40,790 nucleotides of DNA, from UHGV virus genome UHGV-0115898. One strand, written 5' to 3'. How positions within the stretch are numbered: the stretch's first letter is position 1; each line of letters opens with the position of its first letter. Below, one piece after another: positions 1-40,740 of this stretch. Origin of the DNA: a virus. The notes under the pieces were generated by a model. That model did not search any database and was not told the DNA's origin. It saw only the letters and a program-made list of their open reading frames with translations. The position numbers were made by a program, and so were the translations under genes.

Positions 1-52
1 TTATCAATTTGTTGCAACGAACAGGTCACTATCAGTCAAAATAAAATCATTA
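1..52. promoter_or_regulatory. Fragment of lambda-type attachment site P-prime arm with tandem Int arm-type binding motifs (aggtcactat / cagtcaaaat / aaaatcatta); core not in window
   Basis: Sequence immediately 3' of int carries three tandem copies of the arm-type consensus (C/A)AGTCACTAT; recognised as lambda attP P' arm from memory; the overlap-region core is not present. Confidence 0.5.
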
Positions 53-1120
53 TTTGATTTCAATTTTGTCCCACTCCCTGCCTCTGTCATCACGATACTG
101 TGATGCCATGGTGTCCGACTTATGCCCGAGAAGATGTTGAGCAAATTTATCGCTTATCTGCTTCTCATAGAGTCTTGCAGACAAACTGCGCAACTCGTGA
201 AAGGTAGGCGGATCCCCTTCGAAGGAAAGACCTGATGCTTTTCGTGCGCGCATAAAATACCTTGATACTGTGCCGGATGAAAGCGGTTCACGACGAGTAG
301 ATGCAATTATGGTTTCTCCGCCAAGAATCTCTTTGCATTTATCAAGTGTTTCCTTCATTGATATCCCAAGAGCATCAACATGCAATGTTGTTGGGATGGC
401 AATTTTTACGCCTGTTTTGCTTTGCTCGACATAAAGATATCCATCTACGATATCAGACCACTTCATTTCGCATAAATCACCAACTCGCTGCCCGGTAACA
501 ACAGCCAGTTCCATTGCAAGTCTGAGCCAACATGGTGATGATTCTGCTGCTTGATAAATTTTCAGGTATTCATCAGCCGTAAGTCTTGATCTCCTTACCT
601 CTGATTTTGCTGCGCGAGTGGCGGTGACCGGGTTTGTTGTTATATGGCCTTCAGCTATAGCCTCTCGGAATGCATCGCTCAGTGTTGATCTGATTAACTT
701 GGCTGACGCAGCCTTGCCCTCGTCTATGTATCCATTGAGCATTGCCGCAATTTCTTTTGTGGTGATGTCTTCAAGTGGAGCATCAGGCAGCCCCCTCCTT
801 ATTGCTTTAATTTTGCTCATGTAATTTATGAGTGTCTTTTGCTTGATTCCTCTGCTGGTGAGGATTTTTTCGTAGCGATCAAGCCATGAATGTAACGTAA
901 CTGAATTATCACTGTTAATCCTCGCTGTCAGAGGCTTGTGTTTGTGTCCTGAAAATAACTCAATGTTGGCCTGTATAGCTTCAGTGATTGCGATTCGCCT
1001 GTCTCGGCCTAATCCAAACTCTTTACCCGTCCTTGGGTCCCTGTAGCAGTAATATCCATTGTTTCTTATATAAAGGTTAGGGGGTAAATCCCGGCGCTCA
1101 TGACTTCGCCTTCTTCCCAT
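50..1120 (-). CDS. int: Tyrosine site-specific integrase, lambda Int type (356 aa)
   Basis: ORF translation MGRRRSHERRDLPPNLYIRNNGYYCYRDPRTGKEF... with C-terminal catalytic region (HELRSL...LLGH...Y) matches lambda Int along its length; ATG start confirmed at 1118-1120. Confidence 0.97.
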   Translation of the reverse strand: MGRRRSHERRDLPPNLYIRNNGYYCYRDPRTGKEFGLGRDRRIAITEAIQANIELFSGHKHKPLTARINSDNSVTLHSWLDRYEKILTSRGIKQKTLINYMSKIKAIRRGLPDAPLEDITTKEIAAMLNGYIDEGKAASAKLIRSTLSDAFREAIAEGHITTNPVTATRAAKSEVRRSRLTADEYLKIYQAAESSPCWLRLAMELAVVTGQRVGDLCEMKWSDIVDGYLYVEQSKTGVKIAIPTTLHVDALGISMKETLDKCKEILGGETIIASTRREPLSSGTVSRYFMRARKASGLSFEGDPPTFHELRSLSARLYEKQISDKFAQHLLGHKSDTMASQYRDDRGREWDKIEIK

Positions 1121-1316
1121 TTCTGATCCTCTTCAAAAGGCTACCTGTTACTGGTCGATTTAAGTCAACCTTTACCGCTGATTCGTGGAACAGATACTCT
1201 CTTCCATCCTTAACCGGAGGAGGGAATATCCTGCATTCGCGCACCCATCGACGAACTGTTTCAAGGCTTCTTGGGCGTCGCTGGCGTGCGTTCCACTCCT
1301 GAAGTGTCAAGTACAT
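1098..1316 (-). CDS. xis: Excisionase Xis (72 aa), overlapping int start as in lambda
   Basis: Translation MYLTLQEWNARQRRPRSLETVRRWVRECRIFPPPVKDGREYLFHESAVKVDLNRP... matches lambda Xis; 23-nt overlap with int. Confidence 0.95.
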   Translation of the reverse strand: MYLTLQEWNARQRRPRSLETVRRWVRECRIFPPPVKDGREYLFHESAVKVDLNRPVTGSLLKRIRNGKKAKS

Positions 1317-1340: not shown

Positions 1341-1368
1341 AAGAAAAAAACCGCCATCAGGCGGCTTG
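1341..1368 (-). terminator. Putative intrinsic terminator on minus strand between the early-left accessory genes and xis
   Basis: Minus strand reads GCCGCC-TGAT-GGCGG hairpin followed by TTTTTTTT (plus strand aaaaaaaccgccatcaggcggc). Confidence 0.5.
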
Positions 1369-1624
1369 GTGTTCTTTCAGTTCTTCAATTCGAATATTGG
1401 TTACGTCTGCATGCGCTATCTGCGCCCATATCATCCAGTGGTTATAGCAGTCGTTGATGTCCTCTGCTTCGATAACTCTGTTGAATGGTTCTCCATTCCA
1501 TTCACCTGTGACTCGGAAGTGCATTTATCATCTCCATAAAACAAAACTCGCCGTAGCGAGTTCAGATAAAAGAAATCCCCGCGAGTGCGAGGATTGTTAT
1601 TCACCTTTGACGGCAAGTTGCAGG

Positions 1625-1927
1625 TTAGCCATGGTTAACCTCCTGCGGAGTAGCCTTTACAAGCACTGGTGTAAATCCATCTTCATTAAGGTTATGAATA
1701 TAGACTTCCGTTCTCCTGCGCTCTTCAGCGTTTAATATGGTTTCTGGATCATAAACCCATACTTTCATTCGACTATTCCATGAAGAAATCGCTTCAGATT
1801 TAGTTCGTTTTTCTGGTCCTTGGGCACCACATTTGCATGACACATAGCGCATTTTCCCTCTGATACTGAATGAGTATCCGATGTTAAGCACAGTGGAACC
1901 ACAGAATGGGCAGCGATATAGATTCAT
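1625..1927 (-). CDS. Lar-family zinc-ribbon restriction-alleviation protein (100 aa)
   Basis: CPFCG...CKCG cysteine pairs in a small basic protein; resembles Lar/restriction-alleviation family from memory; ATG at 1925-1927. Confidence 0.55.
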   Translation of the reverse strand: MNLYRCPFCGSTVLNIGYSFSIRGKMRYVSCKCGAQGPEKRTKSEAISSWNSRMKVWVYDPETILNAEERRRTEVYIHNLNEDGFTPVLVKATPQEVNHG

Positions 1928-2520
1928 AAATCATCCACCTTAGGCGCAGCTGAGACAGCAACATTCCAGAACTCAGAAAACATATTGTATGCACCAGATA
2001 GATTGGAAGTGGCATACCCTCCAAGCTCACTTCTAATCTGAACGGCTCTCATCATTTCCGGGGTTAACTCCTTCGGCACCATAACCCAACCATCCGGAAT
2101 TACCGGAGAGTTGCCGGGTTCTTTAATGTGCAAGCGAGGCTCACCATCTTTTGGCTCAGGCCACTGGCGCTCCATGTTGATCTTCAATTTATCTTCCATA
2201 GCAGCGGTAATTTCAGCATCGCTGATGCCAGCACGGCGCTGTGCATCCCACAACAGAAACTGCATATCAGCCCACTCGCTAAGATCGTCTGGTTCGGCTG
2301 CGGCTTCCAGTGCCTCTTTTGAGAGATGTTTCAGCGGACCAATGGGGCCAACGCAGCCAAATGTGGAGTCAGACCATTTGGCATGCTCGTGGCGAATCTG
2401 TTCGCGTTGCAGCGATGCCAGAGCAATTCGTGCCAGTTCCATTTGTTCGCCACGGGTAAGTCCGTTTTCAAGCGGATTTTTAATGAACAATTCAATACGT
2501 TCTTTGGTAATAGTGGTCAT
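1924..2520 (-). CDS. Phage DUF550/DUF551-type protein (putative dATP/dGTP pyrophosphohydrolase), 198 aa
   Basis: Motif block DLSEWADMQFLLWDAQRRAGISDAEI...KLKINMERQWPEPKDG resembles the MazG-like DUF550 fold; C-terminal VIPDGWVMVPKELTPEMM resembles DUF551; ATGA overlap with downstream gene. Confidence 0.5.
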   Translation of the reverse strand: MTTITKERIELFIKNPLENGLTRGEQMELARIALASLQREQIRHEHAKWSDSTFGCVGPIGPLKHLSKEALEAAAEPDDLSEWADMQFLLWDAQRRAGISDAEITAAMEDKLKINMERQWPEPKDGEPRLHIKEPGNSPVIPDGWVMVPKELTPEMMRAVQIRSELGGYATSNLSGAYNMFSEFWNVAVSAAPKVDDL

Positions 2521-2530
2521 GTGTTACTCC

Positions 2531-2794
2531 TTAACCCGCAGTGCTTTCAACTGATGAGGAGAACAAAATCTTTTCATCAAACCCTGCATTCATATCATGA
2601 ACAGCAACACACCAATCCATCGACGAACGATTATCAAGAGCCTCCATGATTTCATCCATGCGGCGCAGGTCATACAGGTAAATGCTTTTATCGCCAATGG
2701 TGTAAAAACCAATTTTTTTCGGTGACGGGCAGCGATCAAGAACGTTCTGTAATTCGCTCAACCATGCCTGTTCCTTTTTTGTCAAAGTTGCCAT
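2531..2794 (-). CDS. Hypothetical early-left protein (about 87 aa from ATG at 2794; ORF-track start at 2824 is TTG)
   Basis: ORF in operon orientation; ATG at 2792-2794 lies 1 nt after the upstream gene stop. Confidence 0.45.
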   Translation of the reverse strand: MATLTKKEQAWLSELQNVLDRCPSPKKIGFYTIGDKSIYLYDLRRMDEIMEALDNRSSMDWCVAVHDMNAGFDEKILFSSSVESTAG

Positions 2795-2795
2795 A

Positions 2796-3488
2796 TCACT
2801 CTCCTTTGATGCGAATGCCAGCAAGCCAGTTTCTTATGCCGATATATTCAGCGTTCCTGAAACCGCTTTTTACATATATAAATGGCAAGCGAAGATTGTG
2901 ACCATTGGCTGCCAGGTAGTATTTACAACCCTGTTCGGTGAAACAGCAGGTAACGAATTCATCAATATCTTTCACAGCAACGCGCCGCCATTTTTCTGGT
3001 GGCTCTCGAAAGTTTTCGTGAAGTAGTTCGAGACGACGACTTTGGCGTTTATTGGCTTCATTACCATCTTCATCAACCCAGACAATCCGGTCATAGTCAT
3101 AATCAGCATCAACAACGATTTCGCGCTTTTGATACACACAAAACATAGGGTCTGACGTTATTCGATTATCCTGTGTTCGAATATTTTCACCGATGATGCC
3201 AAACGAATCTGGTGCAGCTTTTTTCTCCAGCTCTGCAATGCGTTTGCTTTGAGCTTCCAGTTCATCAAGAAGCGCAAGCACGGTAGCCGGATTAGCCTTG
3301 GCAACAAAATCCCGGACTGACTTACAATCAATCTCCGCAATGGGTTGATACGATGTGTAGCCATGCTGTCTTGTATAACTACCGTGACGAATAACGAAAA
3401 AATCACCATTTATTTTTTTAGCCTGCCACTTATCTTCACCGGCTTTCTCTGCCGCTTCACGCAGTGCCTGATAATCAATCTTGCTCAC
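2796..3488 (-). CDS. Hypothetical phage protein, Ead/Ea22-like (230 aa), GTG start with AGGAGG Shine-Dalgarno
   Basis: Long ORF; start codon is GTG at 3486-3488 preceded by AGGAGGCAACCA on the minus strand; central coiled-coil-like AQSKRIAELEKKA. Confidence 0.55.
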   Translation of the reverse strand: MSKIDYQALREAAEKAGEDKWQAKKINGDFFVIRHGSYTRQHGYTSYQPIAEIDCKSVRDFVAKANPATVLALLDELEAQSKRIAELEKKAAPDSFGIIGENIRTQDNRITSDPMFCVYQKREIVVDADYDYDRIVWVDEDGNEANKRQSRRLELLHENFREPPEKWRRVAVKDIDEFVTCCFTEQGCKYYLAANGHNLRLPFIYVKSGFRNAEYIGIRNWLAGIRIKGE

Positions 3489-4979: not shown

Positions 4980-5528
4980 TTATTTAGCTAACTTTTTCCA
5001 GATCGCTGAAACGTATTTGGCTTGGTGAATGGCATCATCAAGCGCGTTGTGGCGAGTTCCTTTGAATGGCATATCTCGCTTAGGGTCGAATCCTATTACC
5101 TTCCCAAGTTCGACGATTGTTCTTACGTCGCGGTCATTCCACCACTGCCACGGAACTGGCTGCCCTGTCAGCGAATAACTGTTTCGGAGAATAACGCAGT
5201 CAAATGATGCTCCATTCCCCCAAACCTGAACGAATTTGTGGTTAGCGTTCTTTATGATGAATTCAGATAACCATGAAAGAGCCGTTGAAAGCTCCTGAGT
5301 GTTGCTGGTTAGCGATTTTCTGGCTTCTTCACTCTGTTCCAGCCACCATAAAATCGTTGAAGCGTCAGGACGCGCTCGATATCGCATTGATGATTCAAGC
5401 GAGATATTTACCGAGAACTCTTCTCCTGTTTCTCCGGTATTCGGGTCAAAGAATACCGACCCAATAGAAATAACTGGCGCGTATGGCCCGTTGCCCATTG
5501 TTTCAAGGTCAACCATCAAGTGATTCAT
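4980..5528 (-). CDS. DnaQ-like (DEDDh) 3'-5' exonuclease (182 aa)
   Basis: Exo I motif MVDLETMG near the N-terminus and Exo III motif HNALDDA near the C-terminus; size typical of phage stand-alone proofreading-type exonucleases. Confidence 0.8.
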   Translation of the reverse strand: MNHLMVDLETMGNGPYAPVISIGSVFFDPNTGETGEEFSVNISLESSMRYRARPDASTILWWLEQSEEARKSLTSNTQELSTALSWLSEFIIKNANHKFVQVWGNGASFDCVILRNSYSLTGQPVPWQWWNDRDVRTIVELGKVIGFDPKRDMPFKGTRHNALDDAIHQAKYVSAIWKKLAK

Positions 5529-7610: not shown

Positions 7611-7937
7611 TCAAATAAGTGGTTTGCTGCCTAATTTCATTTTCTGGCGACCAACACAAGTCACACCCATTTCACTGCGTGGCTTGCTGTACCATGTGCG
7701 CTGATTCTTGCGCTCAATACGTTGCAGGTTGCTTTCAATCTGTTCGTGGTATTCAGCCAGCACCGTAAGGTCTATCGGATTCAGTGCGCTTTCTACTCGT
7801 GATTTCGGTTTGCGATTCAGCGAGAGAATAGGGCGGTTAACTGGCTTTGCGCTTACCCCAACCAACAGGGGATTTGCTGCTTTCCATTGAGCCTGTTTCT
7901 CTGCGCGACGTTCGCGGCGGCGTGTTTGTGCATCCAT
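7611..7937 (-). CDS. N: Antiterminator N (108 aa)
   Basis: MDAQTRRRERRAEKQAQWKAANPLLVGVSAKPVNRPILSLNRKPKSRVESALNPIDLTVLAEYH... matches lambda N including the arginine-rich motif; ORF-track extension to 8027 uses an upstream TTG. Confidence 0.92.
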   Translation of the reverse strand: MDAQTRRRERRAEKQAQWKAANPLLVGVSAKPVNRPILSLNRKPKSRVESALNPIDLTVLAEYHEQIESNLQRIERKNQRTWYSKPRSEMGVTCVGRQKMKLGSKPLI

Positions 7938-8047
7938 CTGGATTCTCCTGTCAGTTAGCTTTGAGTAACGCGCCGTGATGCTTATCTCCACGGTTGCTGT
8001 CTTGCAGCTGCATTTCGCGCTACTCAAAGCCTTCTGCTTTGAATGCT

Positions 8048-8271: not shown

Positions 8272-8931
8272 TTAACTAAATGTCTCTTCAGGCCACTGGC
8301 TGGCGATAACTTTCCCTACTACGGAACAGCTATCATTGCATGGAATCATTGGATATTGCGGGTTTAGTGGCTGTAGGAACACCTGACCGCTATCCCTGAT
8401 CAGTTTCTTGAAGGTAAACTCGTCACCACCAAGTCTGGCTATGCAGAAATCACCTGGCTCAACAGCCTGCTCAGGGTCAACGAGAATTAACATCCCGTCA
8501 GGAAAGCTTGGCTTGGATCCTGTTGGCGCGGTCATGGAATTACCTTCAACTTCAAGCCAAAAAGCACAATCACTGGCTTTTTTGGTTGTGCTGACCCATC
8601 TCTCCGCATCACCTTTGGTAAAGGTTCTAAGCTCAGGCGAGAACATCCCGGCCTGAACATGAGAAAAAACAGGGTACTCATATTGTTTTTTAACGGGGGC
8701 AGATGAGTATTCGCCAACAGGTGAAAATGTACCGTCGTGGTTGAATGAGACGTTATCAATACCAAGGTATTTAAACACCACACCAATCTCGTCAAGAGAT
8801 GGATGACGAGATCCGCGCAACCAGTGACCAATTCCACCCTGCGTCATACCAAGCTCTTCAGCTAACTTCTCTTGAGTTATGCCGAGCTCTTTCATTCTGG
8901 ATCTAGCCAGTTCATACCATTTCATTTTCAT
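8272..8931 (-). CDS. cI: CI-type immunity repressor: lambda-like LexA/S24 C-terminal domain, non-lambda N-terminal HTH domain (about 219 aa from ATG at 8931; alternative ATG at 8925)
   Basis: C-terminal ~140 aa ([38 protein letters not shown]...[14 protein letters not shown]...FTFKKL...) matches lambda CI including the Ala-Gly cleavage site and Ser/Lys dyad; N-terminal ~80 aa differ. Confidence 0.88.
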
Positions 8932-9043
8932 ACCCTTATTATTACGCTCTGTACTAAAACCATCCATGCACAAGATGTATTTTTTTGTTTGCATTCTAAA
9001 AGTACATATCGTATTATTGTTTCATGGTTACTATGGAGGGCAT
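8932..9043. promoter_or_regulatory. Divergent cI-cro control region (oR-type operators, pR candidate TTGCAT-17-TATTAT, pRM region)
   Basis: Operator-like half-site pairs at 8941-8955 (atTACgctctGTACT) and 9001-9015 (AGTACatatcGTAtt) resemble the oL palindrome; -35 at 8989-8994 and -10 at 9012-9017 upstream of cro. Confidence 0.5.
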
Positions 9044-12769: not shown

Positions 12770-13210
12770 ATGAAAAAACTAACCTTTGAAATTCGATCTC
12801 CAGCACATCAGCAAAACGCTATTCACGCAGTACAGCAAATCCTTCCAGACCCAACCAAACCAATCGTAGTAACCATTCAGGAACGCAACCGCAGCATAGA
12901 CCAGAATCGAAAGCTTTGGGCTTGCCTTGGTGACGTCTCTCGTCAGGTTGAATGGCATGGGCGCTGGATGGATGCAGAAAGCTGGAAGTGTGTGTTTACC
13001 GCAGCATTAAAGCAGCAGGACGTTGTTCCTAACCTTGCCGGGAATGGCTTTGTGGTAATAGGCCAGTCAACCAGCAGGATGCGTGTAAGCGAATTTGCGG
13101 AGTTATTAGAGCTTATACAGGCATTTGGTACAGAGCGTGGCGTTAAGTGGTCAGACGAAGCGCGACTAGCTCTCGAATGGAAAGCGCGATGGGGAGATCG
13201 GGCTGCATGA
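12770..13210 (+). CDS. ninB: NinB recombination protein (146 aa)
   Basis: MKKLTFEIRSPAHQQNAIHAVQQILPDPTKPIVVTIQERNRS... matches lambda NinB; ATG at 12770. Confidence 0.95.
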   Translation: MKKLTFEIRSPAHQQNAIHAVQQILPDPTKPIVVTIQERNRSIDQNRKLWACLGDVSRQVEWHGRWMDAESWKCVFTAALKQQDVVPNLAGNGFVVIGQSTSRMRVSEFAELLELIQAFGTERGVKWSDEARLALEWKARWGDRAA

Positions 13211-13734
13211 CTATCAAATCAAATACGCCAGCACACGACAAGGACTGCTGGCAAACGCCGCTTTGGCTTTTTGATGCACTGGATATTGAGTTTGGATTCT
13301 GGCTGGATTCGGCAGCGAGCGACAAAAATGCTCTGTGCGCTCACTGGCTGACTGAGGCCGACGACGCGCTCAATTCTGAGTGGGTAAGCCACGGTGCAAT
13401 CTGGAATAACCCGCCGTACAGCAATATCAGGCCGTGGGTGGAAAAAGCCGCTGAGCAGTGCATACAACAGCGACAGACGGTAGTGATGCTTGTGCCAGAG
13501 GATATGTCAGTCGGATGGTTCAGCAAGGCTCTGGAGAGTGTTGACGAAGTTCGTATTATCACTGATGGACGGATTAATTTTATCGAACCATCGACAGGGC
13601 TGGAGAAGAAGGGAAACAGCAAAGGCTCCATGCTGCTGATTTGGCGACCGTTCATCAGTCCTCGACGGATGTTTACTACCGTATCAAAAGCGGCATTGAT
13701 GGCGATCGGGCAGGGCGTCAGGAGGGCGGCATGA
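13207..13734 (+). CDS. Phage orphan DNA N6-adenine methyltransferase (Dam-type), 175 aa
   Basis: Catalytic NPPY motif (IWNNPPYSN), conserved W-x-TP region; ATGA overlap with ninB; replaces lambda ninC/ninD. Confidence 0.8.
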
Positions 13735-34744: not shown

Positions 34745-34812
34745 AGTTGAAGCCCCAACTGCGGGAACAGTCAGGGCTTCTGTTGTCAGTAAATTCGTGG
34801 AGAAAAACCAAC

Positions 34813-37993: not shown

Positions 37994-38027
37994 CCTGCCA
38001 ATAGACTTTATTGGCAGGATTTTTTAT
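37994..38027 (+). terminator. Intrinsic terminator after tailspike, overlapping the 3' end of convergent gtrC
   Basis: CCTGCCAATA-gactt-TATTGGCAGG hairpin followed by ATTTTTTAT. Confidence 0.75.
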
Positions 38028-39462
38028 CAAAATCAACAATCAAAATGCTATCCTTGATATAGGAATTTAGCCATTGCCCCTGAAAGGATAGGTTACCTTC
38101 ACATTTATGTGAAATGTAATTTTTAGCCTTGTTTGCTGGCATGTATGTATTCTTTATCCCATTAAATGACATGTACGCACTTCCCCAATACCAGTTCCAG
38201 AAGTAATCTGTGACTGAATAGTTTATCAAAGGAAAGTTTAATGCTGCATTTTTTACAGCTTCGGATCTTGGTGCTGTGCCGGTAAACACAATGCTAACAT
38301 TATCACTACCAGCGTCGCGAATGGATTGCATAATTTCAGAAAGAACTACTTTATTTATCCTTTCCTGAGCCTTCAAAGCATTTCCGTATACATACATTAA
38401 AATCATAGAATACAATACGGGTATTAATGTAATTGATGTTACGTATCTATGTTCTTTAAAGCAATAATATAGCAATGTACTCATGAGGACATAAAAAACT
38501 CCAACCGACATGTATAAGTGAACTCCTCCCAATGGGTTGGCGAGAACCAGCAATGCCCCCATAGTCATTGGCATAGCGATTGCTGTTGCGAGTATCGCTC
38601 CAGTTATAACGTTAAATACTTTCCAGTTTAGGCCTTTACATTTAACGTATTTGTAACTCAGAAACGCCGTCATAATAATGCAAGCTAAAGCTGACAGGAG
38701 TAATAATTCACCACCGACAACCCTGTAAAAATTTGTAGAAGCAAAATCGTAATACTTTAAGCTGTTATTCTTTAGTGCCCCTAATATATCATTTGATATT
38801 CTTGGGTGATTAGATGAATAATGCCCGCTAAAAGTTATGGGTAATATGAATTTCACGTATATCATACCACCTACTAAAACCTGCATTATACGTAATGCAA
38901 CCCTTTTAAGTATTAACTGCGGGTCAGTAAATCTGGCCATGTTAACTATTACTTCACATATTAATAAAATCGCAACGACATTAATGACTGCCTGATAAGT
39001 GCCAAGCACTATCACTACAAATGCGGTGCCTATTATTAATTCATGAACCAGTCTTTTGCACTTAATTGCAAAGAGAGCAAATGCAGATGCAATGGAGAAA
39101 CTGAAAGTTAAAACATCAAACCGATAAGAGAACATTGATATAATAGCTGGATTCGCCATGAATGCCAGAGGTATAATAAAGCTCCATTTTCCCCCATCAA
39201 GAAACCTCTTTCTGTAACATGCAAAAGATATTGCAAGCAGCACAGAAGCAAGAATGATTGGTAGAGGTGCAAGATCGACGATTCTGGAGCTAAGATTGAG
39301 AACTGACATTACTATATCAGCTACAGGCCTCCCGTCCACACCCCATTTAGTATAACCAACAGTCGTTCGCCCAATATCATCAACATAAAATTGGTTTGCT
39401 AGGATAATTGGCAATATAAATATAAAAATAACATACGAGTAACGTTTTGAGTTGTTAATCAT
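38008..39462 (-). CDS. gtrC: GtrC-type serotype-specific O-antigen glucosyltransferase, polytopic membrane protein (484 aa)
   Basis: Multiple hydrophobic TM segments, AT-rich, located 3' of gtrA/gtrB with overlapping start. Confidence 0.8.
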
Positions 39463-40381
39463 TTTTATTCTTACCCTTTAAAATATATCTTGGACGCTGT
39501 TTAACCTCGATATAAATCCTTCCGATGTATTCACCAAGTACCCCTATACCGATCAACTGAATCCCGCCCAAGAAAAGTATCGATACCAGCAAAGATGGAT
39601 AACCACGAACAGCATTCCCAAATACAAGCGTGTCGATAATCATCCACGTTCCGTACAGGAATGCCACTCCGGCAACAAACAGGCCGATATAGGTCCACAT
39701 ACGCAGGGGTAATGTTGAGAAACTTGTGATTCCTTCAAGTGCTAAATTCCACAACTTCCACCCATTGAATTTTGAATCACCTGCAACCCGTTCTGCGCGT
39801 GCGTATTCCACGACATCTGTCTTTCCGCCAACCCAACTAAGAATGCCTTTCATGAAAAGATTGCGTTCTGGCAGGAGCTTAATATTCTCCACTACCTCGC
39901 GAGACATTAGCCTGAAATCTCCAACATTTTCCTCGATCTGCGGGTTGCTGATTTTGTTATGCAGCTTATAGAACCACTCGGCGGTTTTCCTCTTCAGTCT
40001 GCCATCAGTTGAGCGGTCAGATCGTTTAGCAAGCACCATGTCAGCACCTGCTAGCCATTTCTCAATCAGGTGAGGAATAACTTCTATTGGATCCTGTAAG
40101 TCAACGTCAATCGGGATAATCGCCTCACCAGTTGCGTGATCAAGACCAGCGAACAGCGCAGGTTCTTTACCAAAGTTTCTGGTGAATGACAAAGGAACAA
40201 CAAGCGGATCGGAAACAGCCAGCGCGTTTATAATTGATTCAGTAGCGTCTATGCTACCGTCATTAATAAAGACTATCTCGATTTCATGTTGCTGAAGCCC
40301 TTCAAATTCCCGAGCCGTTTTATAAAAAATCGGTATTGTGTCTTCTTCGTTGAAGACGGGAACGACCAGAGAAATTTTCAT
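39455..40381 (-). CDS. gtrB: GtrB bactoprenol glucosyltransferase (GT2 family), 308 aa
   Basis: GT2 motifs ([22 protein letters not shown]) with two C-terminal TM helices. Confidence 0.92.
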
Positions 40382-40740
40382 CTCGCATCCCTAAATACAA
40401 TTAACTTTGAATAGACGAAACCGCACACCAGGCTGATGGCGGAGAAAGTGATAAGGGTGACCATTGGGGGAAGTGCACATCTATCAGCAGCCCACCCGAC
40501 GACAACACTCAGGGTTCCCATGAATCCCACGTATAACATGTAGCGCATCGTTGTAGTCGATGCTTTGAATGTGAATCTTGCATTCGCGAAGAAGCTAAAG
40601 CTCACAGCTACTATGAAACCTGCGAAGTTTGCCAGAGCCTGATTGGTATGCGCTGCATAGATACATACACCAAAAACCACCCAGTGTATAAGTGTGTTTA
40701 GCACACCAATCGAGGTGTACTTTGCAAATAGCTTTAACAT
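40378..40740 (-). CDS. gtrA: GtrA flippase-like small membrane protein (120 aa)
   Basis: Four predicted TM segments, 120 aa, immediately upstream of and overlapping gtrB. Confidence 0.88.

Follow-up and report, generated by a model that had tools for sequence, protein, structure and literature searches.

Adjacent eaA-type (DUF550) and Lar-family genes in the early-left operon of a P22/Sf6-like Escherichia coli prophage

The locus and its place in the leftward operon

The window considered here, which is the whole stretch of 40,790 nucleotides analysed (UHGV virus genome UHGV-0115898), is a P22/Sf6-like (Lederbergvirus-type) prophage of Escherichia coli with an immunity region of the lambda type. 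Positions 1625–2520 correspond exactly to two open reading frames on the minus strand, as the first-pass annotation had them. The upstream frame is an eaA-type gene (1924–2520, minus strand), which encodes a protein of 198 aa with a match to PF04447, and the downstream frame is a Lar-family gene (1625–1927, minus strand), which encodes a protein of 100 aa recognized by both PF14354 and TIGR03655. The stop codon of the first and the start codon of the second overlap as ATGA. As read from the sequence, both frames have strong Shine-Dalgarno sites: AAGGAG (2527–2532, minus strand) precedes the eaA-type ATG by 6 nt, and AAGGTGG (1935–1941, minus strand) precedes the Lar-like ATG by 7 nt and falls within the 3′ end of the eaA-type gene.

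The placement of both genes in the early-left operon is borne out by the orientation of the region, in which every gene from N to int lies on the minus strand. This strand carries the lambda-N-like antiterminator gene (7611–8027) and the cI-like repressor gene (8272–8994), as well as the genes for a Rad52-like protein, SSB and the anti-RecBCD protein Abc2, which belong to the same operon as the two frames. The leftward transcription unit ends with xis (1098–1316, minus strand, PF07825) and the lambda-type integrase gene int (50–1120, minus strand), which together occupy 50..1316. The pair would thus represent tightly packed, translationally coupled accessory genes of the ‘ea region’, situated late in the N-antiterminated leftward operon, before xis and int.

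The Lar-like gene had been described as lying just upstream of a terminator and xis. The terminator part of this description agrees with a scan and folding of the region, which revealed two tandem terminator-like hairpins with U-rich tails (1595–1574 and 1563–1544, minus strand), the first of them starting 30 nt past the Lar-like stop codon. The tandem fold has a minimum free energy of −31.2 kcal/mol with a z-score of −3.9, and its centroid structure keeps both hairpins. The xis part has to be amended, as xis is not the next gene: the hairpins and a 55-aa open reading frame (1357–1524, minus strand, phrog_676) intervene between the Lar-like gene and xis. A third terminator-like hairpin, GCCGCC-UGAU-GGCGG followed by U7 (1367–1348, minus strand), was found by the same scan and folding; it overlaps the 3′ end of the 55-aa frame and lies upstream of xis.

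The DUF550 core and its predicted active site

The family assignments of both proteins stand, since the profile searches proposed as a check were positive. For the 198-aa protein, PF04447 scored 143.1 bits against a cut-off of 23 (E 3.3e-42, residues 42–137), and the alignment covers profile positions 1–96 of 97. This profile is DUF550, which now carries the name dATP/dGTP pyrophosphohydrolase (dATP-dGTP_PPHyd). A database entry named ‘eaa protein [E. coli E1520]’ has exactly the same sequence (100% identity). Identity to P22 EaA, the gene of which likewise lies in the ea region of the PL operon, is 80% for the core.

Three parts can be distinguished in the protein, with boundaries defined by phmmer comparison with 150 representatives and by the joints of the DNA mosaic at about 2088–2115. 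The N-terminal module spans aa 1–37 (nt 2410–2520, minus strand). It is followed by the core, a predicted all-alpha NTP pyrophosphohydrolase of the DUF550/MazZ-like type (aa 38–137, nt 2110–2409, minus strand), and by a C-terminal module (about aa 138–198, nt 1927–2109, minus strand), which starts with a ‘SPVIPDGW’ hinge. Among the enterobacterial ‘Eaa’/DUF550 proteins, the N- and C-terminal modules vary between alleles. The additional DUF551 likeness that had been suggested for this protein found no support, as PF04448 is absent both from the whole protein (E<=0.01) and from its C-terminal 65 aa (E<=10); DUF551 is carried by 16 of the 73 other DUF550 representatives. The AlphaFold2 model was built from a shallow alignment of near-identical homologues and reached a pLDDT of 45, which makes it unusable, and the fold assignment depends entirely on the sequence. 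Predicted helices would fit the four-helix MazG-HisE fold.

The only solved relative found by sequence is MazZ of cyanophage S-2L (PDB 7ODY), a (d)GTP-specific enzyme of the MazG-HisE fold. It was the single relative that the DUF550 core profile detected in the PDB, and the sequence match is weak both for the profile (E 9e-4) and for the 198-aa protein as a single sequence (E 0.32). A second relative is the DUF5664-DUF550 enzyme of the Acinetobacter phage SH-Ab 15497, which was aligned by hhalign with a probability of 94% (E 1e-7) and has the motifs E..E / E..AD / D / K..N..R.W in common with the core of the window protein. Conversion of (d)NTPs to (d)NMPs and pyrophosphate is demonstrated for both S-2L MazZ (PMC8342488) and the SH-Ab 15497 fusion protein (PMC12884076). 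The three proteins differ in their architecture. MazZ is a single domain on the scale of 105 aa encoded beside purZ and datZ, and the SH-Ab 15497 enzyme, which functions beside purZ, has an added N-terminal DUF5664 domain (PF18909), a domain that in a related phage is itself active on dATP, dGTP and dUTP (PMC12884076). In the window protein, by contrast, the core has an additional module on either side, and the window carries no Z-cluster.

The residues of MazZ, whose individual functions are described in PMC8342488, were mapped onto the 198-aa protein by phmmer and profile alignments to 7ODY. The predicted metal motif K68-E69-x-x-E72...E82-x-x-D85 (codons within 2264–2316, minus strand) aligns to MazZ E34/E35/E38/E50/D53. 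Four of the five metal ligands are thus kept; in place of the fifth, MazZ E34, there is K68, at a position that shows no strict conservation in MazZ-1. The Asp that reads the guanine N2 in MazZ (D60) corresponds to D92 (codon 2245–2247, minus strand). Of the second-chain residues with which MazZ contacts the nucleotide and its phosphates, K76/N80/R83/W85 correspond to K111, N115, R118 and W120 (codons within 2161–2190, minus strand), and R94/H95 correspond to R129/H131. The ligands E69, E72, E82 and D85 are invariant in all 139 sequences, while D92, K111, N115, R118, W120, R129 and H131 are conserved in at least 98% of the representatives. Across 138 representative cores, the active-site residues are invariant or nearly so, within surrounding architectures that range from 140 to 460 aa.

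The protein is likely an active enzyme that converts purine (d)NTPs to (d)NMPs and pyrophosphate, because the metal ligands, the K/N/R/W contacts and the guanine-reading Asp of MazZ are retained. Judged from these conserved residues, it would most likely act as an oligomer and use Mg2+ or Mn2+ for the cleavage. Guanine nucleotides may be favoured, because the residue by which MazZ recognises the guanine 2-amino group, an Asp, is present. The most plausible candidate roles in the lytic growth of a phage with ordinary, A-containing DNA would be the trimming of the guanine-nucleotide or alarmone pool, or the sanitising of the nucleotide pool.

Another role could be read from the relatives themselves, namely that the enzyme supplies dGMP and removes dATP for the synthesis of 2-aminoadenine (Z) DNA. 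PF04447 takes its present name from the SH-Ab 15497 enzyme, MazZ acts ahead of PurZ, and homology to both pyrophosphohydrolases was confirmed here. The window is, however, a standard lambdoid, P22-like genome, and tblastn searches of it with PurZ, DatZ and DpoZ of SH-Ab 15497 gave no match at E<=1. With purZ, datZ and dpoZ absent from the window, the enzyme does not serve Z-DNA synthesis, and the probability left to this role is negligible. The role of a MazZ-like pyrophosphohydrolase in phages that do not make Z-DNA becomes directly testable with the intact predicted active site and its guanine-reading Asp.

The Lar-family protein

For the 100-aa protein, the Lar assignment is given by PF14354 Lar_restr_allev (36.1 bits against a cut-off of 28.6, E 7.8e-9), by TIGR03655 anti_R_Lar (59.5 bits against a cut-off of 39.6, E 3e-16) and by PHROG 599, ‘Lar-like restriction alleviation protein’ (E 1.6e-18). 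Residues 1–53 (nt 1769–1927, minus strand) form a four-Cys zinc ribbon with a helix (C6, C9, C31 and C33, then E45-A46...W50-N51-x-R53). The ribbon cysteines and the EA..WN.R residues are conserved in alignments of the Lar family, and most of them are common to Rac Lar. The remaining part, aa 54–100 (nt 1628–1768, minus strand), is a conserved extension of 47 aa that gave no match in a Pfam search. At 100 aa, the protein therefore differs from the small single-domain Lar type of about 55–65 aa. The AlphaFold2 model (pLDDT 76) displays a pair of beta-hairpins and a helix. Its top structural matches in BFVD are other Lar-family proteins, and a fold search against the PDB returned nothing significant, with all matches at E>0.3.

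The closest counterpart is gp20 of Shigella phage Sf6, named ‘Lar-like restriction alleviation protein’ in RefSeq, which is 99% identical over all 100 aa. Its gene occupies the same place, overlapping an upstream gene of the Eaa/Ea22 type and followed by a small open reading frame, xis and int. A more distant counterpart is Lar of the Rac prophage of E. coli K-12 (64 aa, also known as RalR), which belongs to the same Pfam and TIGR family and has the CPFCG...C-x(1-2)-C ribbon and the EA..WN.R helix. In a BLASTP comparison, Rac Lar is 34% identical over 53 aa (E 1e-5), and it is devoid of the 47-aa C-terminal extension.

As far as the account of King and Murray (1995) given in PMC3177214 goes, restriction alleviation and modification enhancement (EcoKI-type, type IA) are demonstrated only for Rac Lar. 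It is homology, with the identity of about one third to this protein, that points to a putative anti-restriction activity of the window protein. Its most likely function, by this homology, would be to dampen restriction and enhance modification by type I restriction-modification enzymes. The DNA protected in this way would be replicating or co-infecting phage DNA, and the mechanism would operate at the protein level. In phage Bas63, the importance of a Lar-like gene depends on the strain and does not track intact type I systems (PMC11482910). The conserved extension of the present variant offers a way into the mechanism of Lar/Ral, which has been a question since the 1990s.

Under the name RalR, Rac Lar has since been described as a toxin with non-specific DNase activity, which the sRNA RalA keeps under control (PMC4041452), and the K-12 annotation now follows this description. 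The window protein could accordingly be seen as the toxin of a type I toxin–antitoxin pair and not as an anti-restriction protein, the more so as, in the Rac order int–xis–small ORF–lar–recT, ralR stands to xis and int as the Lar-like gene does here. No counterpart of the antitoxin side was found, however. Its DNA has no similarity to the Rac xis-rcbA-ralA-ralR segment, no homologue of the RcbA protein was found, the 55-aa frame at 1357–1524, which takes the position of RcbA in Rac, included, an Rfam search detected no sRNA in the region, and a scan of the plus strand at 1357–1624 detected no promoter-like site. Moreover, identity to RalR is low, and the gene is translationally coupled within a lytic operon that is repressed in the lysogen. 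A RalR-type toxin is consequently regarded as very unlikely.

Some prophages carry Lar-like genes that PGAP calls ‘partial’, which hinted at pseudogenisation of the gene in many prophages. This possibility was rejected: the DNA is colinear and in frame, so the calls reflect inconsistent annotation. In one prophage with such a call, the DNA is identical to that of the window.

Mosaic linkage and the counter-defence question

The eaA-type and Lar-like genes are neighbours through mosaic recombination and do not form a dedicated two-part system. In other prophages, the same Lar allele follows genes for Ea22-like, DUF551-containing or DUF550 proteins, and the DNA mosaic block that holds the Lar-like gene extends over about 1329–2115. 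The DNA of the surrounding segment is matched by about 3,400 of the 5,426 complete E. coli genomes, and the EaA/DUF550 core is represented by about 4,000 representative protein clusters.

A different arrangement can be considered, in which the C-terminal module (about aa 136–198) and the Lar-like protein constitute the obligate pair and the DUF550 core is an exchangeable passenger. The junction at 1808–2047 is indeed retained at an identity of at least 99% in 153 of the 154 E. coli genomes with the Lar allele. Sf6 gp21, which has an Ea22-like N-terminal part where the window protein has its DUF550 core, matches it only over the last 63 aa, at 98% identity. Enterobacter prophages, however, separate the two: their Lar-like homologues (67% identity) follow proteins that end in DUF551 and share at most the ‘GNSPVIPDGW’ hinge with the window protein, not its C-terminal module. 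Recent common descent of one DNA block is hence the best explanation for the linkage seen in E. coli and Shigella, and an obligate pair is highly improbable. Two DUF550 representatives carry a Lar-like ribbon N-terminal to the core; as a ‘Rosetta-stone’ fusion of DUF550 and Lar, they were rejected as too weak, with scores of 27.5 and 23.6 bits, below the Pfam cut-off of 28.6.

Probably, then, the locus is best explained as a whole by a coupled pair of the ea region, a predicted MazZ-like purine pyrophosphohydrolase and a putative anti-restriction protein of the Lar family, set beside each other as mosaic neighbours. Both genes belong to well-known and routinely annotated families, which makes the observation correct but ordinary and already known. 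The two genes carry these family names in the RefSeq/PGAP annotation of hundreds of prophages of E. coli, and the databases already contain proteins with an identity of 99% or 100%.

The first-pass annotation went further and combined the two genes with a Dam-type methyltransferase into a multi-layered counter-defence repertoire. The methyltransferase is present (13147–13734, plus strand, PF05869, E 9e-65) and lies about 11 kb from the pair, within the rightward operon (nin region). With Dam in a different operon and the pair composed of two independent mosaic modules, such a repertoire overstates the linkage. The proposal that the nucleotide-pool enzyme counters dNTP depletion is mechanistically implausible, since a dNTP pyrophosphohydrolase consumes dNTPs and cannot relieve defences of this kind.

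The enzyme might still be a dedicated counter-defence factor directed at a guanine alarmone or an immune nucleotide and layered with the Lar-like protein, Abc2 and Dam. The substrates envisaged are (p)ppGpp or antiviral analogues such as ddhGTP and dITP. The one precedent is Atd1 of the Pectobacterium phage PcCB7V, a MazG-like all-alpha NTP pyrophosphohydrolase that acts on guanine nucleotides, depletes (p)ppGpp and confers protection from TIR-STING toxicity (bioRxiv 10.1101/2022.06.09.495361). Atd1, however, has a canonical MazG catalytic domain and represents a family different from DUF550, so it may serve as a possible functional analogue and a lead only. The intact active site with its guanine-reading Asp fits this idea, as does the presence of Abc2 in the same operon and of Dam elsewhere in the phage. 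The very strong conservation of the core between shuffled flanks argues for selection on catalysis. On the other hand, the Lar-like gene is not a constant neighbour, and the literature yielded no functional study of any EaA/DUF550 protein of lambdoid phages, nor an experiment that ties these proteins to defence evasion. A dedicated counter-defence role is thus unlikely.

The counter-defence idea can also be extended to both proteins at once, so that the EaA/DUF550 core would act on an alarmone or on an immune or antiviral nucleotide such as (p)ppGpp, ddhGTP or dITP and the extension of the Lar-like protein would target something other than type I restriction-modification. This combination is a little more doubtful still. 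If it were true, the very widespread EaA/DUF550 module would be a general enzyme of counter-defence or host takeover.

Position at the distal end of the leftward operon

The EaA-type (DUF550) gene (1924-2520, minus strand; 198 aa) and the Lar-like gene (1625-1927, minus strand; 100 aa) were called as open reading frames (ORFs) that together match exactly the span of the first-pass annotation (1625-2520). Both are already known and routinely annotated. In the sequence, a strong ribosome-binding site precedes each ATG, AAGGAG by 6 nt for the EaA-type gene and AAGGTGG by 7 nt for the Lar-like gene. The stop codon of the former and the start codon of the latter overlap in ATGA, and such tight packing suggests that the two genes are probably translationally coupled. 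Upstream, on the same strand, lie genes for Ead/Ea22-like, DUF7446, DUF5405, Abc2 anti-RecBCD, Rv2179c-like exonuclease, SSB and Rad52-like recombinase proteins, up to a lambda-N-like antiterminator (7611-8027, minus strand) and a cI-type repressor (8272-8994, minus strand); the same-strand genes continue down to a lambda-type integrase (50-1120, minus strand). This places the pair at the distal end of the leftward, N-antiterminated operon, where the first pass had put it.

The proposed placement just upstream of a terminator and xis holds in part. The Lar-like gene is followed by two tandem terminator-like hairpins (1595-1574 and 1563-1544, minus strand), but an extra 55-aa ORF (phrog_676; 1357-1524, minus strand) and, in all, two hairpins beyond the single one claimed precede xis (1098-1316, minus strand; PF07825), the last of them carrying a U7 tail (1367-1348, minus strand). 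This small ORF is conserved, is bordered by terminator-like hairpins on both sides (1544-1595 and 1348-1367) and has no match in Pfam or NCBIfam. It occupies the position of rcbA/ralA in the Rac prophage, yet is unrelated to them.

Two further observations concern the upstream genes. The ORF at 2531-2824 (minus strand) has a mechanical TTG start at 2824, and its PHROG 1714 match begins only at residue 11; the true start is probably the ATG at 2794 (87 aa), 1 nt past the stop of the Ead/Ea22-like gene (2796-3488). The protein with the Rv2179c-like 3′-5′ exoribonuclease domain (182 aa; 4980-5528, minus strand; PF16473, E 2e-72) is encoded between the SSB and Abc2 genes of the PL operon, within a lambdoid cluster for recombination and anti-RecBCD functions.

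Modules and predicted active site of the EaA-type enzyme

The 198-aa protein covers the full profile of PF04447, once called DUF550 and today "dATP/dGTP pyrophosphohydrolase", with a score of 143 bits. The first-pass label, DUF550/DUF551-like, is retained for its first half only, as DUF551 gave no hit in the full protein and none when the last 65 residues were searched by themselves at E<=10. The identical sequence has database entries named "eaa protein" and "DUF550 domain-containing protein", and EaA of phage P22 shares 80% identity with its core. An exhaustive search of cluster representatives yielded 3,954 clusters at E<=1e-3, and the modules were dissected in the best 150, which range from 132 to 461 aa. 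Around the DUF550 core (approximately aa 38-137), the N-terminal module (aa 1-37) occurs in 28 of these 150 and the C-module (aa 138-198), in diverged forms, in 66. The end modules exist around a different center as well, since six 166-aa proteins (P0231, P0236, P0237, P0245, P0247 and P0257) combine both of them without the core. The joints of the DNA mosaic among phage genomes, at approximately 2088-2115, fall exactly on the hinge SPVIPDGW between the core and the C-module, and other representatives continue after the same hinge with DUF551 (16/73) or Cys-rich modules. The SPV(T/I)PDG hinge looks like a general point of exchange for modules at the C-terminus. In the representatives P0179, P0200, P0204 and P0255, it is followed by a Cys/His-rich C-module, CPCCGRK...C.V.GC..KHVAHGLC..HY, with no match in Pfam. 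In P0184 and P0226, the core is preceded within one polypeptide by a weak zinc ribbon of the Lar-like kind (27.5 and 23.6 bits, below the Pfam cut-off of 28.6).

The Pfam name derives in part from a DUF5664-DUF550 fusion of SH-Ab 15497 that yields dAMP and dGMP from dATP and dGTP (PMC12884076), and in part from kinship to cyanophage S-2L MazZ, an enzyme of the MazG-HisE fold with specificity for (d)GTP (PMC8342488). The core aligned with the SH-Ab 15497 protein, whose domains were confirmed, at 94% hhalign probability (E 1e-7). A profile of diverse cores had MazZ (7ODY) as its sole match in the PDB (E 9e-4); the 198-aa protein as a single sequence matched it at E 0.32. MazZ residues are numbered as in its paper, with an offset of 6 from the PDB chain that was consistent over 18/18 residues checked. 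The metal ligands E35, E38, E50 and D53 of MazZ correspond to E69, E72, E82 and D85. Its residues K76, N80, R83 and W85, which contact the transition state and phosphates, align with K111, N115, R118 and W120, and R94 and H95 align with R129 and H131. D60, which reads the 2-amino group of guanine, corresponds to D92. The only replaced ligand is E34 (K68 here), also the sole one not strictly conserved among MazZ-1 proteins. All matched positions are invariant or nearly so across 138 representative cores. These correspondences predict a catalytically competent (d)NTP pyrophosphohydrolase, probably with a guanine or purine preference. A structural model of the whole protein, built on near-identical sequences only, was poor (pLDDT 45).

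The literature search found no study of any DUF550/EaA protein from a lambdoid phage. A role in 2-aminoadenine DNA (Z-DNA) is excluded, because PurZ, DatZ and DpoZ are absent from the window. The earlier idea that the enzyme may counter dNTP-depletion immunity is implausible and runs against the chemistry, since the enzyme would lower dNTPs still further. Alternatively, it may remove a nucleotide signal or an alarmone, for which there is a precedent in Atd1, a phage MazG-like enzyme of another family, which depletes (p)ppGpp and protects from TIR-STING toxicity (bioRxiv 10.1101/2022.06.09.495361). Pool sanitizing and modulation of the stringent response in lytic growth fit the data equally well. 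The one useful result is a prediction at the level of single residues, which can be tested on the never-characterized EaA/DUF550 enzymes of phages with ordinary DNA.

The Lar-like protein and its upstream neighbor

The Lar assignment stands, with PF14354 (36.1 bits) and TIGR03655 (59.5 bits) above their curated cut-offs of 28.6 and 39.6, and with a match to PHROG 599, "Lar-like restriction alleviation protein". Sf6 gp20, Lar-like in RefSeq, is 99% identical, and this allele is present in 154 of 5,426 complete E. coli genomes. The founding member of the family, Rac Lar of K-12 (now RalR, 64 aa), is 34% identical across 53 residues (E 1e-5), and both proteins have the CPFCG...C-x-C zinc ribbon (C6, C9, C31, C33) and the EA..WN.R helix. 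The extension at aa 54-100 is missing from Rac Lar; it is conserved in approximately 15 enterobacterial clusters, with no or almost no variation at E69, R70, R71, T73, Y76, I77, L80, G84, F85 and P87. In an AF2 model with moderate confidence (pLDDT 76), the ribbon is followed by a beta-alpha-beta unit. The fold search of the PDB with this model gave nothing significant, and its top matches in BFVD were other Lar-family ribbons aligned on the N-terminal half. Evidence on the function of Lar is genetic and comes from Rac, where the protein alleviates EcoKI restriction and enhances modification (PMC3177214). An anti-restriction role of the Lar-like protein is a reasonable expectation from this homology.

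Rac Lar was later reported as the DNase toxin RalR under control of the sRNA RalA (PMC4041452), and the Rac gene order, int-xis-rcbA/ralA-ralR-recT, parallels that of the window. A RalRA toxin-antitoxin system was rejected here, because neither DNA nor protein comparison found a ralA/rcbA counterpart in the window and Rfam gave no match at the xis/Lar-like region. Decay of the gene was likewise rejected. For the same 303-nt ORF, PGAP uses two labels, a 100-aa Lar-family protein in some records and a "partial" Lar with a separate 47-aa hypothetical protein in others, although the ORF is intact in the window (1625-1927) and in two other loci compared (L003, 3295-3597; L006, 2501-2803). As the DNA alignment contains no frameshift or stop codon, the annotation is inconsistent, and many "pseudogene" calls are artefacts of a ribbon-only model.

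The two genes do not constitute a unit, since Lar-like genes follow differing upstream genes elsewhere. The window's Lar allele comes after an Ea22-like protein in Sf6, and after DUF550 proteins in the window and a few E. coli strains; in Enterobacter prophages, diverged homologues (67% identity) come after DUF551 proteins, and the 4-nt overlap recurs there. In E. coli/Shigella, the Lar-like gene is always accompanied by the last approximately 60 codons of its upstream gene (153/154 genomes, at least 99% identity), and the last 63 aa of Sf6 gp21 are common with the EaA-type protein (98%). This linkage to the C-module is gone in the Enterobacter relatives and is therefore best explained by recent descent of one DNA block (approximately 1329-2115) rather than a conserved partnership. 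The conserved feature is the location. Shortly ahead of xis and int, as in Rac too, the end of a modular Eaa-type gene is coupled to a Lar-like gene.

Composition of the phage genome

The Dam-type methyltransferase is present (PF05869; 13147-13734, plus strand), but in another operon, the nin region, and the suggested multi-layered counter-defence repertoire is, in effect, what lambdoid phages usually carry as accessory genes. The first-pass observation is confirmed with three corrections, and its interpretation is partly supported. Overall, the window is an E. coli phage or prophage, P22/Sf6-like and mosaic, and the best single phage record covers at most 48% of its first 25 kb. The sar antisense RNA of P22 immI (34745-34812, minus strand; RF00262, 91 bits vs 43) marks a P22-type immI (ant) region, which is joined here to lambda-type N, cI and cII immunity. 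At the far end lies an O-antigen glucosylation (serotype-conversion) cluster, gtrA/gtrB/GtrII-like (38008-40740, minus strand), which would lie beside att and int on a circular or prophage map.
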